Numbered from the stretch's first letter, positions 56,162-64,000 are shown. The stretch is 64,000 nucleotides of DNA from Pseudomonadota bacterium (GCA_039196715.1 JBCCUP010000015.1:4292-68291), one strand, 5' to 3'. Numbers and translations: made by a program. Notes: generated by a model not told the origin, from the sequence alone.

Positions 56162-56818
56162 TCAAGATGAGGTGACTTCCCCGTCACACAGCGCGTCGCC
56201 ACCCGGGTGGTGAGCGACAAACCGCAGCGCACCGTCAGGACGCTGCACGACTACGAAACGGGCACAGTTCTGCGCCTGGGGCCCGGACCAGAGGGCGGAC
56301 AACGGCAAACCCGCGGCGACGCAGTACACCGCCTTTATCAGCGCACCGTGACTGATCACCAGCACGCGTTGCCCCGGCTGAGCGGCCGCGATGGTGGACA
56401 ACGCCGAGCACCCTCGGTGTTGCAGCTCCGCCACGGTTTCGGCCCCCTCGAGCGCGAAACGCTCTGGCGCGTTGAGAAAGTGATCGAATGCCCTGGGCCA
56501 GACCCGCGTGACCTCGGTCCTGAGCTTTCGCTGCCAGGGCCCGAGGTGTATTTCACGCAGCGCATCACGGAACACCGGCTTGCAGGGTCGCCCCGCCAGC
56601 ACGCCATCGAGGGTCTGCCGGGTCCGCACGCTGGAGCTGCAGTACACCGCGTCGTAGTGCGCGATGTCGAGCTGCGTGCCCAGGGCCGCGGCCTGCGCGA
56701 GTCCGCGTGCCGACAAACGCGATTCCGCCTGTCCCTGCACACGCCCGGCCGCATTCCATTCGGTTTCACCATGGCGCACCAGGTGAAATTCGGTTTCAGG
56801 CGGGGCCTGCTCGGTCAT
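56162..56818 (-). CDS. histidine phosphatase family protein (phosphoglycerate mutase-like)
   Basis: RHG catalytic motif LVRHGETEWN and downstream His (ISHGALIKA). Confidence 0.75.
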   Translation of the reverse strand: MTEQAPPETEFHLVRHGETEWNAAGRVQGQAESRLSARGLAQAAALGTQLDIAHYDAVYCSSSVRTRQTLDGVLAGRPCKPVFRDALREIHLGPWQRKLRTEVTRVWPRAFDHFLNAPERFALEGAETVAELQHRGCSALSTIAAAQPGQRVLVISHGALIKAVYCVAAGLPLSALWSGPQAQNCARFVVVQRPDGALRFVAHHPGGDALCDGEVTSS

Positions 56819-56914
56819 CTCGGCGCACCACGGCGGGGGGTTGGTGTCACATTGTCCGGTATAATTTGCACAGGTACCAACCGGCGCACCGCGCCGCGGA
56901 TGCAGAGCAGGAGG

Positions 56915-57910
56915 ATGGCAGTGCCCGGTTCACCCGTGCCTCAACGCGATGGCCAACCCCACCGTGTCGCCGTGATACTGGTGCCCGAGTTTTCCCTGAT
57001 GGCATTCAGTTGCTCGACCGAGCCGCTGCGGTCGGCCAACCGGATGACCGGCCGCGATCTCTACGAATGGCGTGTGTTCACGCTCGACGGCGCGCCCGCC
57101 CGCAGCAGCAGTGGGATCGAAATTGCCAGCCACGGCGCACCCGACCTCGGCTGGCCGGACACGGTGTTGGTCTGCGGTGGGCTCGATCTCAACCGCAGCC
57201 TCTGTGAACCCTACCACCGCCTGATGCACCGCTTTGCCAACCGTGGTATCCGCATCGGCGGCGTGAGTACCGGCGGCTATCTGTTGGCGAGCTCGGGCCT
57301 GCTCGACGGGTACCGTTGCACTTTGCACTGGGAGTACATCGCGAGCTTCGCCGAGGATTTCCCGAACCTCGACATCACCGATCAGCTGTACGTGATCGAC
57401 CGCAACCGCATGACGAGTTCCGGTGGTACCGCCGCGATGGACATGATGCTCGCCCTGATCGCCGGCGAGCACGGCGAGGACATCGCCACCCTGGTCGCGA
57501 GCCAGTTCATTCACGAGCGTGCACGCACAGGGTCCGAGCACCAGCGCATTGCCGAGGACACGCTGAATGCGCGACAGTCACAGAAAATGGCGGACGCGAT
57601 CGCGTTGATGCGCGAAAACATGGAATCCCCGCTCACGCCGCGCGAGCTCGCCGAGCGGGTGAACCTGTCGTTGCGCCAGCTCGAGCGGCTGTTCCGAAAA
57701 TACAAGGACGATACGCCGCAACACTACTACCTGCGCCAGCGGCTCGAACAGGCCCACCGCTACATCATCCAGACCGGCATGCCGCTGATCGAGGTCGCCG
57801 TCGCCGTCGGTTTCGTGTCGCAGTCCCATTTCACCAAGTGCTACCGTGATCTCTACGGACAGACCCCGTTGCAGAACCGACGCATGCACGATCAGCAACA
57901 CCCGGGCTGA
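56915..57910 (+). CDS. GlxA-family AraC-type regulator (DJ-1/PfpI-like GATase1 domain + AraC HTH), GbdR/CdhR-like
   Basis: AGGAGG RBS then ATG. The N-terminal DJ-1/PfpI domain (VAVILVPEFSLMAF...GGVSTGGYLLA) is followed by a C-terminal AraC HTH (HFTKCYRDLYGQTP). Confidence 0.8.
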   Translation: MAVPGSPVPQRDGQPHRVAVILVPEFSLMAFSCSTEPLRSANRMTGRDLYEWRVFTLDGAPARSSSGIEIASHGAPDLGWPDTVLVCGGLDLNRSLCEPYHRLMHRFANRGIRIGGVSTGGYLLASSGLLDGYRCTLHWEYIASFAEDFPNLDITDQLYVIDRNRMTSSGGTAAMDMMLALIAGEHGEDIATLVASQFIHERARTGSEHQRIAEDTLNARQSQKMADAIALMRENMESPLTPRELAERVNLSLRQLERLFRKYKDDTPQHYYLRQRLEQAHRYIIQTGMPLIEVAVAVGFVSQSHFTKCYRDLYGQTPLQNRRMHDQQHPG

Positions 57911-57919
57911 CACCACGCC

Positions 57920-58855
57920 ATGCACATTCTCGTGAGCATGCCGACAGAGCAACGCGACCACGCCGAACGCTGGCGCACGGCGCTGATGCAACGGCTACCG
58001 TCTGCCGACATCAGCGTGTACTCGAGCGGCGAGGTGCCACGCAACGTCGACTACGTCGTCACCTGGAAACCCGATGCAGACTTGATGTCACGGCTGACCG
58101 GCTTGCGCGCTGTGTTCACCGCCAGCGCGGGGGTCGACGCCATCCTCGCACAGGCAGACCTGCCCGACTGCCCGATCGTGCGCTTGCTCGACGCCGGCAT
58201 GGGCGACCAGATGGCCGACTATGCCCTGTTCGCCGGGCTGTACCTGCAACGTGGCTTTGACCGCATGCGCGAGGCCCAGGCCGAGGCCCGTTGGGCACCG
58301 GCGCTCGGTGCCGCTCGTGACCGACCGGTGGTTGGTATCCTCGGTCTTGGCACCCTGGGCTCGGTCGTGGCTGCGCGCCTGGTCGCAAACGGCTTCCCCG
58401 TGCGCGGCTGGTCGCGCACGGCGCGGACCGTGCCGGAGTTGAGCTGTTTCCATGGCCTGGATGGTCTGGACGATTTCCTCGCCGGCACCGAGCTGCTCTT
58501 CTGTCTCCTGCCACTGACGCCGCAGACGCGGCACCTGATCGACCGCCGACGTCTCGAGGCCCTGCCACGTGGTGCGGCGGTCGTGAACGTTGCCCGTGGG
58601 CCTGTCGTCAACGAAGTGGATCTTCTGGCCGCACTCGACTCCGGGCACGTGCGTTGCGCCCTGCTCGACGTGTTCGCCACCGAGCCGCTGCCGCCGGACA
58701 ACCCGCTCTGGCAGCACCCCCGGGTCGTGATCACCCCGCACGTTGCTGCTGCCACGCTGATCGAACCCAGTGCCGACAGCGTCGTCGCGGACATGGCACG
58801 CCTTGAACGCGGCGACACACCGCGCGGCCTGGTGGACCGAGCCCGGGGTTACTGA
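57920..58855 (+). CDS. D-2-hydroxyacid dehydrogenase (glyoxylate/hydroxypyruvate reductase A-like)
   Basis: NAD-binding GILGLGTLGSVVA and a catalytic R/E/H arrangement (VNVARG...ITPHVAA). Confidence 0.8.
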   Translation: MHILVSMPTEQRDHAERWRTALMQRLPSADISVYSSGEVPRNVDYVVTWKPDADLMSRLTGLRAVFTASAGVDAILAQADLPDCPIVRLLDAGMGDQMADYALFAGLYLQRGFDRMREAQAEARWAPALGAARDRPVVGILGLGTLGSVVAARLVANGFPVRGWSRTARTVPELSCFHGLDGLDDFLAGTELLFCLLPLTPQTRHLIDRRRLEALPRGAAVVNVARGPVVNEVDLLAALDSGHVRCALLDVFATEPLPPDNPLWQHPRVVITPHVAAATLIEPSADSVVADMARLERGDTPRGLVDRARGY

Positions 58856-59319
58856 CCGGCACTGATCCGCACCCAGTGCTCAACCCGCTCGGCGTCGCTG
58901 TCGCGCAGCCGACGGCTCATTTCCCGTCCGATATTCATGTGCAACAGGGTCATCTGCTCCAGGTCCTGCTGCCACACGCGGTGCATGGTGTCGGGCCCGA
59001 TCTCCAGCGCGATGCACGGCGATTGAGCAACGGCCGTGTAGCTGCGAGGCTGCAGGTCAATGTGTGCCGCCTCGCCGTAGGAGTCACCCACGGCAATGGA
59101 TCGCAAGACATAGCACAGCGTGTCGGTCTCCCAGACCGCGAGCGCACGCCCGTGAAGCAACACAAAGAGGCTGTCACCGTCCTCGCCTTGCCGAAAGAAC
59201 GCCTGGCCGGGCGCGCGCGGCAACGCCGGCGCATGCGTCATCAGCGTGCCGAGGGTGAGCTCGGACAAGCCACCAAACACGGGCATCTGCTGCAGCGTTT
59301 CGATCGAAGGCGGGGTCAT
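58849..59319 (-). CDS. stand-alone cyclic-nucleotide-binding domain protein
   Basis: About 156 aa with cNMP-binding-fold hallmarks (FFRQGEDGDSLFVLLHGRALAV...). No DNA-binding domain. Confidence 0.55.
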   Translation of the reverse strand: MTPPSIETLQQMPVFGGLSELTLGTLMTHAPALPRAPGQAFFRQGEDGDSLFVLLHGRALAVWETDTLCYVLRSIAVGDSYGEAAHIDLQPRSYTAVAQSPCIALEIGPDTMHRVWQQDLEQMTLLHMNIGREMSRRLRDSDAERVEHWVRISAGQ

Positions 59320-59509
59320 GGTGGGCCTTGGACGGTCGCGTGAGTCACGGCGGCTGCACATCGCAGGCCACTTACGGCCGAGGACGTTTGCCACGCTGCG
59401 ACACCGATCACATTTCGGAACGTCATGTCAGCCCGTTTGAGCTGACCGGTGACCTGTGCGCTGCCCCTGATTATACAATCCGCGCACCCGCCCTCCGCGA
59501 CCAACCGCC

Positions 59510-60910
59510 ATGGCCATCAGCGTATTCGACCTGTTCAAAATCGGTATCGGACCATCAAGCTCTCACACGGTGGGCCCCATGCGCGCAGCTCATCGGTTTC
59601 TGGAGGCGCTGGACGCACGGGACCTGATCGAACGCACGGCGCGGGTGCAGACCGAGCTCTTCGGGTCGCTCGGCGCCACCGGCCGCGGTCACGGATCCGA
59701 CAAGGCCGTGATCCTGGGTCTGATGGGCGAAACCCCCGAAGACACGGATACCACCACGGTCAACACGCGGGTGCGCACGGCGCGCGAACAGCGCAGCCTC
59801 ATGCTGGCCGGGCGCCACCGCATCGCCTTCGACGACGACAGCGATCTGGTGCTCTACCGCGAAAAGTCGCTGCCGTTTCACAGCAACGGCATGCGACTGC
59901 GTGCGCTGGACGCCAGCGGTGCGGTGCTGCACGAGGCCGTCTACTACTCGGTCGGCGGCGGCTTTGTCGTCGACGAGTCTGCCGTTGCCGGCGATGACCC
60001 GTTGACCGAGGACCAGACAACCCTGCCCTACCCGTTCACCACGGCGGAGGAACTGCTCTGTCTGGCCAACGAGCACAACGTGCCGATCAGCAGCATCATG
60101 TTCGCCAACGAACGCGTTTGGCACTCGGACGAGGACATACGCGCCGGCCTGCTGCGCATCTGGGACGTGATGCAAGGCTGTGTGCAGCAGGGCATGACCA
60201 CCGAAGGCGTATTACCAGGTGGCATGAAGGTCAAGCGGCGCGCGTTCGCGCTGCACCGCAAGCTCACCTGCGAGGCCCCGGGCGAGGCCTTGCCAATCGG
60301 CGTGCTGGACTGGGTCAACCTCTACGCGCTGGCGGTGAACGAGGAAAACGCCGGTGGTGGCCGCGTCGTCACCGCGCCGACCAACGGCGCGGCGGGCATC
60401 ATCCCCGCGGTGATGCACTACTACGCCAAACACTGCCCCGGTGCGACCGAGGACGGCATCATCCGTTTCCTGCTGACCGCCGGCGCGATCGGCATTCTGT
60501 TCAAGGAGAACGCCTCGATCTCGGGCGCGGAAGTCGGTTGCCAGGGCGAGGTCGGGTCGGCTTGCTCAATGGCAGCTGGCGCGCTGACGGAAGTGCTCGG
60601 CGGCACGCCGGCACAGGTCGAAAACGCCGCTGAAATCGGTATGGAACACAACCTAGGCCTGACGTGCGACCCGATCGGCGGCCTGGTTCAGGTCCCCTGC
60701 ATCGAACGCAATGCCATGGCCTCGGTCAAGGCGATCAACGCCAGTCGCATGGCGCTGCGCGGGGACGGTACCCATTTCGTCTCGCTCGACAAGGTCATCA
60801 AGACGATGCGCGAGACCGGCATGGACATGTCCCAAAAGTACAAGGAAACCGCCCGCGGCGGCTTGGCCATCCACGTGTTGGAAGTGCCGGTGAACGTGGT
60901 CGAATGTTGA
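59510..60910 (+). CDS. sdaA: L-serine ammonia-lyase (Fe-S dependent L-serine dehydratase)
   Basis: [27 protein letters not shown]... covering the full-length alpha+beta domains, 466 aa. Confidence 0.9.
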
Positions 60911-61130: not shown

Positions 61131-61853
<723 letters not shown>

Positions 61854-61887
61854 CGCGCGGCCTCGCCGTGGTCGGTGGAACCTTGCC

Positions 61888-62553
61888 ATGCCGTGTGACA
61901 CCGAATCCAGCCGCAAGACGCGATCCCCCGACACCCCTGTTGCCAAGACCACACTTGTCATTGCCTGTGGTGCGCTTGCGCACGAAATCACGGCCTTGCA
62001 ACGACTCGGCAACTGGCAACACATTGCCGTTCAATGCCTGCCAGCCGAGCTGCACAACCGACCCGACAAGATCCCTGAAGCGGTACGGGCCAAGATCCAG
62101 GCGGGTCGTGATCGTTTCGCGCACCTGTTTGTCGCGTATGCCGACTGCGGCACCGGCGGTCTGCTCGACAAGGTGCTGCGCGAGGAAGGCGTGGAGCGCT
62201 TGCCCGGCGACCACTGCTACGGTTTTTTCGCCGGGCAAAACGCATTCGATGCGATTAGCGAGGCCGAGCTTGGCACGTTTTACCTGACCGATTTTCTGGC
62301 GCGCCACTTCGACCGCTTGATCTGGCGGGGCATGGGGTTGGAGGCGCACCCGGAACTGTTGCCCATGATGTTCGGCAACTACACACGCCTGCTCTACCTT
62401 GCGCAGAAGCCTACGGACGACTTGCAGCACCGTGCGCAACAGGCTGCCGACAAGCTTGGCTTGCGCTACGAGTTCAAGCAAACGGGGTATGGCGAACTCG
62501 CCACAGAACTGACATCCGTCGCGGAGAAAACAATCACATGGCGAAACTTGTAA
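61888..62553 (+). CDS. DUF1638-domain protein
   Basis: About 221 aa. As far as I recall, this conserved family sits next to corrinoid/methyltransferase genes. ATG at 61888 verified. Confidence 0.6.
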   Translation: MPCDTESSRKTRSPDTPVAKTTLVIACGALAHEITALQRLGNWQHIAVQCLPAELHNRPDKIPEAVRAKIQAGRDRFAHLFVAYADCGTGGLLDKVLREEGVERLPGDHCYGFFAGQNAFDAISEAELGTFYLTDFLARHFDRLIWRGMGLEAHPELLPMMFGNYTRLLYLAQKPTDDLQHRAQQAADKLGLRYEFKQTGYGELATELTSVAEKTITWRNL

Positions 62554-62846
62554 CCATTTGGTGGCGGGACATCCCCTCACAGGTCACCGTAAAAAAAGGC
62601 CGCAAGAACGGAAAAGTCCTGTTATCCGAGCGCTTCCAGGAAGCGATAGACAGGGCCGCAATGCGTGCGGGGAAAAAGACCACCGACGAGTACCTCGAGG
62701 ACTGGCGGCGTGAAGAGAGAGAGGTCGAGGGCGAGTTGCAAGCAATCGCAGACGCCGAGGCCGCTGCACTGGAGGCTCGGTACAGTGATGACGATCTGAA
62801 ACAACTGGAGCGCCAACACGGCCACGCGCAAACCGCCGACAACTGA
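62538..62846 (+). CDS. hypothetical small charged protein (102 aa)
   Basis: Its start overlaps the DUF1638 stop by 16 nt. Lys/Glu-rich, with GC3 lower than its neighbours. No known domain. Confidence 0.35.
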   Translation: MAKLVTIWWRDIPSQVTVKKGRKNGKVLLSERFQEAIDRAAMRAGKKTTDEYLEDWRREEREVEGELQAIADAEAAALEARYSDDDLKQLERQHGHAQTADN

Positions 62847-62883: not shown

Positions 62884-63810
62884 ATGAACTCCGATATCAA
62901 CACCAGCGACATTGAGAGCACAGTCCAGGCTTTCATGCGGGACTTTACGCTCGAGACGACACCTGGGCAGGCCGCCAAGCTCGAAAGCTACCAGGGCATC
63001 CTGCGCGAGGGCACGACCGTGGCCGTGACCTTCCTGCCCGGTTCCGACTACCGCGACACGGTGAAAACCGCTGCACGCTTGCGCGCCGAAGGCTTCGAAC
63101 CCGCTCCGCACTTTGCCGCGCGATCGATCGCCAGCCGCGATGAATTCAACGACTTTGTCGCACGGTGCGCTGGCGAAGCCGGCGTCAACCACGTCGTCGC
63201 CCTGGCCGGTGGCGTGGACAACCCTGTCGGCCCCTACGACAGCTCGATGGCCATTCTCGAGACCGGTATTTTTGACAAGCATGGCATCGCGAAGGTTGGT
63301 GTGGCGGGTCATCCCGAGGGCAGCCCGGATATCAGCGATGCCCTGCTCACCGAAGCGTTGCAATGGAAGAATGCGTTGTCCGAGCGCACCGACGCAGAGC
63401 TGTATATCGCGACTCAGTTCGTGTTCGAAGCCGAACCCGTGATCGCCTGGGACAAAGCGATCCAGGCCGAGGGCAACCGACTGCCGATCCACATTGGTGT
63501 GCCGGGCCTCGCGACCATCAAGACCTTGCTGGCGCACGCCAAGGCCTGCGGCGTCGGGCCGTCCATGCGCTTTCTCACCCGACAGGCGATGAACGTCGCC
63601 AAGCTCATGACCGTCAGTGCACCGGACAAACTGGTCACAGCGCTCGCCCAGTACCAGGCGACCGACCCCGATTGCGGCATCAGCCATGTGCACATGTACC
63701 CGCTGGGCAGCTTCAAGAAAACCGCGGACTGGAGCTACGCCGTCGCCGACGGCGCGATCCGGATGAACGCGAAACGTGACGGATTCGAGGTCGATCTGCC
63801 CTCGGCTTGA
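62884..63810 (+). CDS. methylenetetrahydrofolate reductase-like protein (MetF family)
   Basis: 308 aa with a TIM-barrel MTHFR-like fold (VAVTFLPGSDYRDTV...HVVALAGGVDNP...) and high GC3. Confidence 0.75.
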   Translation: MNSDINTSDIESTVQAFMRDFTLETTPGQAAKLESYQGILREGTTVAVTFLPGSDYRDTVKTAARLRAEGFEPAPHFAARSIASRDEFNDFVARCAGEAGVNHVVALAGGVDNPVGPYDSSMAILETGIFDKHGIAKVGVAGHPEGSPDISDALLTEALQWKNALSERTDAELYIATQFVFEAEPVIAWDKAIQAEGNRLPIHIGVPGLATIKTLLAHAKACGVGPSMRFLTRQAMNVAKLMTVSAPDKLVTALAQYQATDPDCGISHVHMYPLGSFKKTADWSYAVADGAIRMNAKRDGFEVDLPSA

Positions 63811-63896: not shown

Positions 63897-64000
63897 ATGA
63901 GTGAAACAGTTCTCACATCAGCGAGCGGAAAGGAATGGGTCATGGGTTTCGACCGTCCTTTCACGATCATCGGCGAACGCATCAACCCGACTGGCCGAAA
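63897..64000 (+). CDS. methyltetrahydrofolate:corrinoid methyltransferase-like pterin-binding protein (MtgA/AcsE/MtrH-like), truncated at window end
   Basis: MSETVLTSASGKEWVMGFDRPFTIIGERINPTGR. The IIGERIN motif is characteristic of pterin-binding methyltransferases. Confidence 0.5.
   Translation, partial: MSETVLTSASGKEWVMGFDRPFTIIGERINPTGR

Follow-up and report, generated by a model that had tools for sequence, protein, structure and literature searches.

The cobalamin-dependent MtgBCD/split MetH system has lately been put forward as one of the main routes by which abundant bacteria of sea and soil demethylate glycine betaine and make methionine. Here, we compare with this system two overlapping genes, one encoding a DUF1638 protein and the other a small protein of the Pfam family PF13769. 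They lie near the end of a 64-kb stretch of DNA (the window) from the metagenome-assembled genome (MAG) of an uncultured member of the Pseudomonadota. In Phaeobacter inhibens, methionine is synthesized by a three-part split MetH (Price et al. 2018, PMC5764234). Two further genes, one for a RamA-like ferredoxin/DUF4445 protein and one for a DUF1638 protein, are cofit with the split MetH, and their mutants are rescued by methionine (PMC5764234). The DUF1638 gene (PGA1_c13340), whose mutants are methionine auxotrophs, adjoins the gene for the B12-binding subunit (PMC5764234). Across the Alphaproteobacteria, the presence of DUF1638 tracks whether the RamA-like protein is present, and no specific function of DUF1638 was offered (PMC5764234).

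A similar set of proteins is seen in Ruegeria pomeroyi. During growth on glycine betaine, DUF1638 (SPO2162, labelled 'B12-reactivation') and RamA (SPO2041) are induced (Mausz et al. 2025, PMC12478193). On N-osmolytes, no protein is induced more strongly than MetF2, and SdaA is also induced (PMC12478193). Besides SPO2162 and SPO2041, the set includes MtgC (SPO2160), MtgD (SPO1863), and MetF2 (SPO1862) (PMC12478193). In both P. inhibens and R. pomeroyi, DUF1638 adjoins mtgC, and the activase gene is distant (PMC5764234, PMC12478193). SPO1861, an 'uncharacterized protein' whose gene adjoins metF2 and mtgD, shows significant induction under two of four conditions of growth on N-osmolytes (PMC12478193). 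Judged by its position, SPO1861 may be the PF13769 orthologue. The small PF13769 gene itself is named in neither PMC5764234 nor PMC12478193.

An earlier prediction made from the window (the original prediction) held that DUF1638 has no established function. Biochemically this is correct, but it leaves aside the methionine auxotrophy (PMC5764234) and the induction on betaine (PMC12478193). It further proposed that the products of both genes assist the corrinoid protein as accessory factors, such as in its reductive activation or chaperoning. Gene context and the published genetics and proteomics support an accessory role, and we consider this part of the proposal probable.

Judged from its genes, the locus belongs to the known aerobic MtgBCD/split methionine synthase system (Table 1). 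As in that system, a corrinoid protein with cap and B12-binding domains, a DUF1638 protein, a pterin-binding methyltransferase, MetF2, and a RamA/RACo-like ASKHA protein are encoded. DUF1638 is next to mtgC as in the model organisms, and a GlxA-type regulator and sdaA again supply a catabolic context. Unlike in the published descriptions, all of these core genes form one operon here and in most Gamma- and Betaproteobacteria, and the PF13769 gene appears to be translationally coupled to the DUF1638 gene. Such coupling is suggested by the overlap of the two open reading frames (ORFs), which is kept across the related loci described below, at 13 nucleotides (nt) in 45 and 16 nt in 4 of them. Both ORFs match their Pfam families far above the gathering thresholds of 27 bits (PF07796, DUF1638) and 25 bits (PF13769). 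The first ORF scores 101.2 bits (E = 7.2e-29, profile positions 1-158 of 161), and the second scores 82.1 bits (E = 3.6e-23, positions 2-80 of 81). Pfam and the sequence thus confirm what the original prediction had described, namely two coupled genes with a 16-nt overlap between the corrinoid protein gene and a methylenetetrahydrofolate reductase (MTHFR)-like gene. The small ORF had been described as a gene of unknown function; it is no orphan, since it belongs to a named family.

The small ORF is a real gene and clearly coding. The original prediction had allowed for a low coding potential; instead, besides the Pfam match, 2,422 homologues are found at E <= 1e-3, and codon position 3 holds 54% of the nucleotide differences among 77 orthologues. 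The AlphaFold2 model of its product has a predicted local distance difference test score (pLDDT) of 92.7. NCBI annotates the exact proteins, from a Pseudomonadota MAG, as 'DUF1638 domain-containing protein' and 'virulence factor'. A chance or antisense origin of the small ORF was rejected, since homology, Pfam match, and codon-position bias all lie in the plus-strand frame. Mirror ORFs on the minus strand (61690-62580, 296 aa; 62534-62842, 102 aa) have no homology support. They are typical of DNA with 65% GC and are not to be annotated.

The absence of a canonical RamA-type activase from this stretch, which the original prediction had stated, is an artifact of the window end. A public contig of 3.6 kb (L001) matches the window without a difference along 2,298 nt and extends beyond it. 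This contig supplies the full mtgD-like ORF (302 aa, PF00809 Pterin_bind), which is followed by an ORF with a 2Fe-2S ferredoxin motif, whose first 138 codons are present. According to L001, the start of the activase corresponds to window coordinate 64896 or so, which is some 0.9 kb beyond where the window stops. For this organism, the N-terminal 138 residues of the activase are available; with the N-terminus of a 682-aa RACo/RamA-like ASKHA protein of L003, a fully syntenic Granulosicoccaceae locus, they share 74% identity. The full architecture is read from the L003 protein, which has the complete set of RACo domains (Fer2, RACo_linker, RACo_middle, and the ASKHA C-terminal domain). The operon order is mtgC - DUF1638 - PF13769 - metF2 - mtgD - RACo/RamA-like. 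Because the activase ORF starts after mtgD, DUF1638 and PF13769 accompany rather than replace an activase.

In RACE-type ATPases, ATP drives an electron from an Fe-S domain onto the inactive Co(II) corrinoid to give Co(I) (PMC7317905). The downstream activase is like RACo of Carboxydothermus hydrogenoformans, RamA of methanogens, and the O-demethylase activating enzymes in its RACo architecture (PMC7317905, PMC6739815), and by analogy it is presumed to perform this ATP-driven Co(II)-to-Co(I) reduction. DUF1638 and PF13769, unlike these ATPases, have no ASKHA or Fer2 domain. Neither ORF matches PF14574, PF17651, PF17650, or PF00111 even at E <= 10, which speaks against a RACE ATPase identity. 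The reactivation domain of MetH (PF02965) works with flavodoxin and S-adenosylmethionine. The present system is similar to it in the expected task, the rescue, in an aerobe, of oxidized cob(II)alamin bound to a methyltransferase. Unlike with the MetH domain, ATP-driven reduction would be expected rather than reductive methylation with S-adenosylmethionine, and the two proteins show no sequence or fold similarity to it: neither ORF matches PF02965 in Pfam, and PDB searches by profile and by Foldseek found no such domain.

The association of the gene pair with this system is seen in 80 related loci, which were collected by scanning one genome per species and whose DUF1638 proteins are 51-67% identical to the query. 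The hosts belong to the Gammaproteobacteria (Steroidobacteraceae, Granulosicoccaceae, Woeseiaceae, Arenicellales, Halofilum, and SUP05) and Betaproteobacteria (Rhodoferax, Comamonadaceae, and Thauera), together with one alphaproteobacterium and Gaiellales. Neighbors were counted in the loci with enough flanking sequence, and unbiased clustering of all ORFs and seeded tblastn agree. MtgC is encoded directly upstream of DUF1638 in all 68 of these loci, and PF13769 (77/78), MtgD (63/64), and the RACo-like activase (55/56) are almost as constant. Among these closest relatives, DUF1638 is strongly linked to corrinoid-methyltransferase genes, contrary to the lack of association that would have spoken against the original prediction. 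An MttB gene is found no farther than 10 kb away in 34 of the 80 loci, and a homologue of the GlxA-type regulator in 28. The genes hardly vary in their order, MtgC-DUF1638-PF13769-(MetV-MetF or MetF2)-MtgD-RACo. Between PF13769 and mtgD, 56 of the 80 loci have a pair of MetV (PF12225) and MetF, and 13 have a single divergent MetF2, as the window does. These two alternative MTHFR modules suggest that the step oxidizing methyltetrahydrofolate (methyl-H4F) is subject to modular replacement.

The two genes are separated in some Alphaproteobacteria. In S. meliloti, DUF1638 adjoins MtgC, and the activase is encoded elsewhere; PF13769 heads a PF13769-MetV-MetF-MtgD-RACo operon. Pseudorhodobacter has a PF13769-MetF2-MtgD cluster with no DUF1638 or RACo nearby. 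Because DUF1638 stays beside mtgC and PF13769 follows the activase, MtgD, and MetF, the corrinoid protein is suggested as the target of DUF1638 and the activase as that of PF13769.

A connection between PF13769 and the activase is provided by gene fusion. A plasmid of Terrarubrum flagellatum encodes a 760-aa 'virulence factor' that consists of PF13769 (residues 8-92), Fer2, RACo_linker, RACo_middle, and RACo_C_ter, and the fusion gene comes after the genes for a B12-binding protein and DUF1638. The PF13769::RACo fusion is found in 23 of the 120 RACo-like protein clusters closest to the T. flagellatum protein, with identities down to 59% and with every invariant PF13769 residue kept; for these reasons, it is a maintained fusion and no assembly artifact. 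In the three fusion loci that were inspected, the operon is a minimal MtgC-DUF1638-[PF13769::RACo], and folate enzymes are not encoded nearby. The fusion and the composition of these loci connect PF13769 with the end of the activase at which electrons enter, and they disfavor a primary role with MTHFR. PF13769, present as an N-terminal extension of some Hyphomicrobiales activases, lies outside the described RACo architecture. It can now be recognized as a near-constant and sometimes activase-fused component of the system. The advance is modest, in that a tie of DUF1638 to B12 reactivation was already known and the tie of PF13769 to the activase is what is new. One DUF1638 representative (P0477, 344 aa) appears to be a clean in-frame fusion of DUF1638, a linker, and PF13769. 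Many other 'long' DUF1638 representatives are frameshifted metagenomic reads through the overlapping gene pair.

The PF13769 protein contains 18 Lys and Arg, 21 Asp and Glu, and no Cys, and no cofactor motif for electron transfer is present in it. Its N-terminal 60 residues are basic (isoelectric point 9.8), and its C-terminal part is acidic. The AlphaFold2 fold starts with three strands at the N-terminus; a helix, a fourth strand, and a C-terminal pair of helices that form the acidic tail follow. The conserved residues of the N-terminal part are W9, R10, D11, P13, Q15, G21, R22, R32, F33, D38, M42, R43, Y52, and W56. In the literature searched, no paper links PF13769 to this system or to any metabolic context, and none documents a virulence role. 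Its genomic context is always C1/corrinoid metabolism, and it occurs in Proteobacteria and Gaiellales that live free in the environment. The annotation 'virulence factor' is unsupported, and correcting this misleading name matters for the thousands of genomes over which it has spread.

DUF1638 has had a phenotype since 2018, with no mechanism proposed, and a conserved Cys/His signature is now identified in it. The AlphaFold2 model (pLDDT 84.4) is a two-lobed alpha/beta protein with about six strands that alternate with helices. Residue conservation was counted in 150 family representatives. C27 (115/115), C87 (145/146), and C110 (147/148) are conserved, as are H56 (125/127) and H109 (145/149). 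D86, T134, and D135 are nearly invariant, and C50 is kept in 92 of 125. The conserved residues sit just after predicted beta-strands, at their C-terminal ends, which is where ligand sites are located in alpha/beta folds. From the sequences and the predicted secondary structure, the three Cys and two His residues can reasonably be regarded as a putative metal (Fe-S, Zn, or Co) or thiol redox site. A profile search of PDB sequences with DUF1638 returned nothing, and weak Pfam matches of both proteins at E <= 10 gave no hint of a clan. A kinship with the two-Cys Asp/Glu racemases, suggested by the motifs 'IACG' and 'HCY' and by the aspartate transcarbamoylase-like structural matches, was rejected; hhalign against E. 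coli MurI gave a probability of 0.6%, and there is no match to PF01177.

We consider it probable that DUF1638 and PF13769 are accessory parts of the corrinoid reactivation or maintenance module of a cobalamin-dependent methyl-transfer system. The system comprises the corrinoid carrier MtgC, the methyl-H4F:corrinoid methyltransferase MtgD, the methylenetetrahydrofolate reductase/oxidase MetF2, and the RACo/RamA-type activase. In aerobic cells, the Co(I) of MtgC is often oxidized to inactive Co(II). The RACE-type ATPase would return MtgC to Co(I) at the cost of ATP, using an electron from its N-terminal [2Fe-2S] domain, a mechanism established for its family. We infer the physical contacts and the exact step from the gene data as follows. 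PF13769 may serve as a detachable domain for docking or as an adaptor where electrons enter the activase, at its N-terminal end. DUF1638 may act on or with MtgC via a cleft lined by the Cys and His residues, probably a metal or thiol redox site. It could supply, condition, or gate the electron, pre-reduce Co(III), or prepare the cofactor. Translational coupling would provide DUF1638 and PF13769 in a fixed proportion, and the two might bridge MtgC and the activase. That the two proteins meet is hinted at by the coupling of their genes in Gamma- and Betaproteobacteria. A more specific version, in which the two, as hitherto unrecognized subunits, adapt an anaerobe-type RACE ATPase to oxygen-exposed corrinoid proteins, is tentative and less probable than the general reading. 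DUF1638 would then be a new kind of Cys3/His2 protein, with a metal or thiol redox function, that binds MtgC and supplies or gates the electron or pre-reduces Co(III), and PF13769 would dock at the [2Fe-2S] end. If true, this would be a three-component activase, which is described in no characterized system.

Several points weigh against a role in corrinoid reactivation or maintenance. The 80 loci are the closest relatives and do not sample the DUF1638 family without bias; a profile search found 1,967 representatives of this family at 50% identity. In Rhodobacterales and S. meliloti, PF13769 travels with metF and mtgD and not with DUF1638. PF13769 is not universal, being absent from a gammaproteobacterial MAG (L064, 10603-10646) and from the otherwise complete operon on plasmid IV of Paracoccus aminovorans (L090, 9609-9795). 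In these two cases, it is either dispensable or encoded elsewhere in the genome. As far as is known, RACo and RamA of anaerobes work in vitro without such partners. For PF13769, Foldseek found no PDB match better than E 0.5, and a profile search of PDB sequences was empty, which leaves it with no solved relative. The best Foldseek matches of DUF1638 in the PDB are ornithine and aspartate transcarbamoylases (E 5e-4) with a template modeling score of about 0.26 and a root mean square deviation above 12 A, so that the resemblance is at most that of a generic two-lobed, aspartate transcarbamoylase-like alpha/beta fold. Because DUF1638 has no solved structural relative, its Cys/His site is derived from sequence and secondary structure alone.

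Less likely, yet the strongest of the alternatives, is that DUF1638 is a chaperone for cofactor loading or processing of MtgC that works outside the ATP-driven step. It would insert cobalamin, remove the upper ligand, or reduce Co(III) to Co(II), and PF13769 may or may not share this function. The constant position of DUF1638 beside mtgC, even where the activase gene is elsewhere, is in accord with this, and its conserved Cys/His cleft might serve as a cobalt ligand or as a thiol-based reductant. The methionine auxotrophy of the mutants fits loading as well as reactivation. However, alphaproteobacterial DUF1638 tracks the RamA-like protein and not cobalamin use in general, and among PDB structures the DUF1638 model resembles neither known B12 chaperones nor B12-binding proteins. 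The coupling to PF13769 and the PF13769::RACo fusion also point to the activase.

It is improbable that PF13769, perhaps with DUF1638, is instead a partner of MetF2 or MetV/MetF, such as an electron-transfer or regulatory subunit. This would explain why its gene is directly upstream of MetV-MetF or MetF2 in most loci, heads the S. meliloti operon, and adjoins MetF2-MtgD in Pseudorhodobacter where DUF1638 and RACo are not nearby. However, the partner in the fusions is RACo and not MetF, no MTHFR gene is near the fusion loci, and MtgD comes directly after PF13769 in three of the related loci (L066, L072, and L075). The protein also has no Cys and no electron-transfer cofactor motif. A role of the small protein as an operon regulator or nucleic-acid-binding protein, or as a true virulence factor, as its basic N-terminal part and the family name might suggest, is very improbable: it matches no DNA-binding fold, a dedicated GlxA-type regulator is already present, the name is unsupported in the literature searched and the hosts are free-living environmental bacteria, and covalent fusion to an ATPase/ferredoxin enzyme together with coupling to DUF1638 favors a structural subunit.

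Table 1. The gene pair and its neighbors in the window, with positions counted from its first nucleotide.
Feature	Position	Strand	Description
DUF1638 gene	61888..62553	+	ATG start, 221 aa; PF07796
PF13769 'Virulence_fact' gene	62538..62846	+	ATG start, 102 aa
DUF1638/PF13769 gene overlap	62538..62553	+	16 nt; ATG at 62538, TAA at 62551-62553 (read from sequence)
mtgC-like corrinoid protein gene	61137..61853	+	PF02607 + PF02310 (B12-binding cap + B12-binding domains); DxHxxG-type 'DIHDIG' motif
metF2-like gene, divergent methylenetetrahydrofolate reductase	62884..63810	+	308 aa; PF02219, E 2.5e-7, above gathering score
mtgD-like gene, pterin-binding methyl-H4F:corrinoid methyltransferase, 5' end	63897..64000	+	cut by window end
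sdaA, L-serine dehydratase	59510..60910	+	PF03313 + PF03315; syntenic in L003; upstream neighbor, C1/glycine-betaine catabolism context
GlxA/GbdR-type AraC regulator gene, with DJ-1/PfpI domain	56900..57910	+	PF12833, PF00165, PF01965

Among the neighbors of the gene pair, the corrinoid protein has 'glycine betaine-specific corrinoid protein MtgC' as its top NCBIfam match, with a score under the cut-off of that model. The metF2-like protein is 46% identical to the product of the Pseudorhodobacter gene positioned between PF13769 and mtgD. Unlike in the MtgBCD/split MetH system, the whole 64-kb window contains no gene for MtgB (MttB family, PF06253) and none for the homocysteine-binding MtgE, and an MttB-family gene is also absent beside the syntenic L003 operon. 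Because the window has no MttB-family gene, it is only by context that this locus is linked to betaine. This copy of the operon could serve methionine synthesis, betaine demethylation, or both. At 55.9-64 kb, no Rfam element, including a cobalamin riboswitch, was found, and scans for promoters and terminators yielded nothing informative.

The block upstream of the operon (window 56162-60910) is syntenic with that of the Granulosicoccaceae MAG (L003 1952-9027). It contains a phosphoglycerate-mutase-family gene, the GlxA/GbdR-type regulator gene, a 2-hydroxyacid dehydrogenase gene, a minus-strand gene for a cyclic nucleotide-binding protein, and sdaA. A formate-tetrahydrofolate ligase gene is additionally present in the L003 block. 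By its gene content, the upstream block fits a glycine-betaine/C1 catabolic island. An annotation as 'GlxA family' is also found beside the same operon in Azoarcus and Paracoccus.

Two more genes are seen in the alphaproteobacterial loci. A protein of about 235 aa, annotated as 'ferredoxin' or 'hypothetical' and with no Pfam match, is encoded next to MttB in S. meliloti (L083 2144-2848) and Paracoccus aminovorans (L090 5573-6280). It could be another accessory protein of such systems. In the S. meliloti locus, a hypothetical gene for a 112-aa protein (L083 12058-12396), likewise with no Pfam match, lies between mtgD and the ASKHA activase gene.

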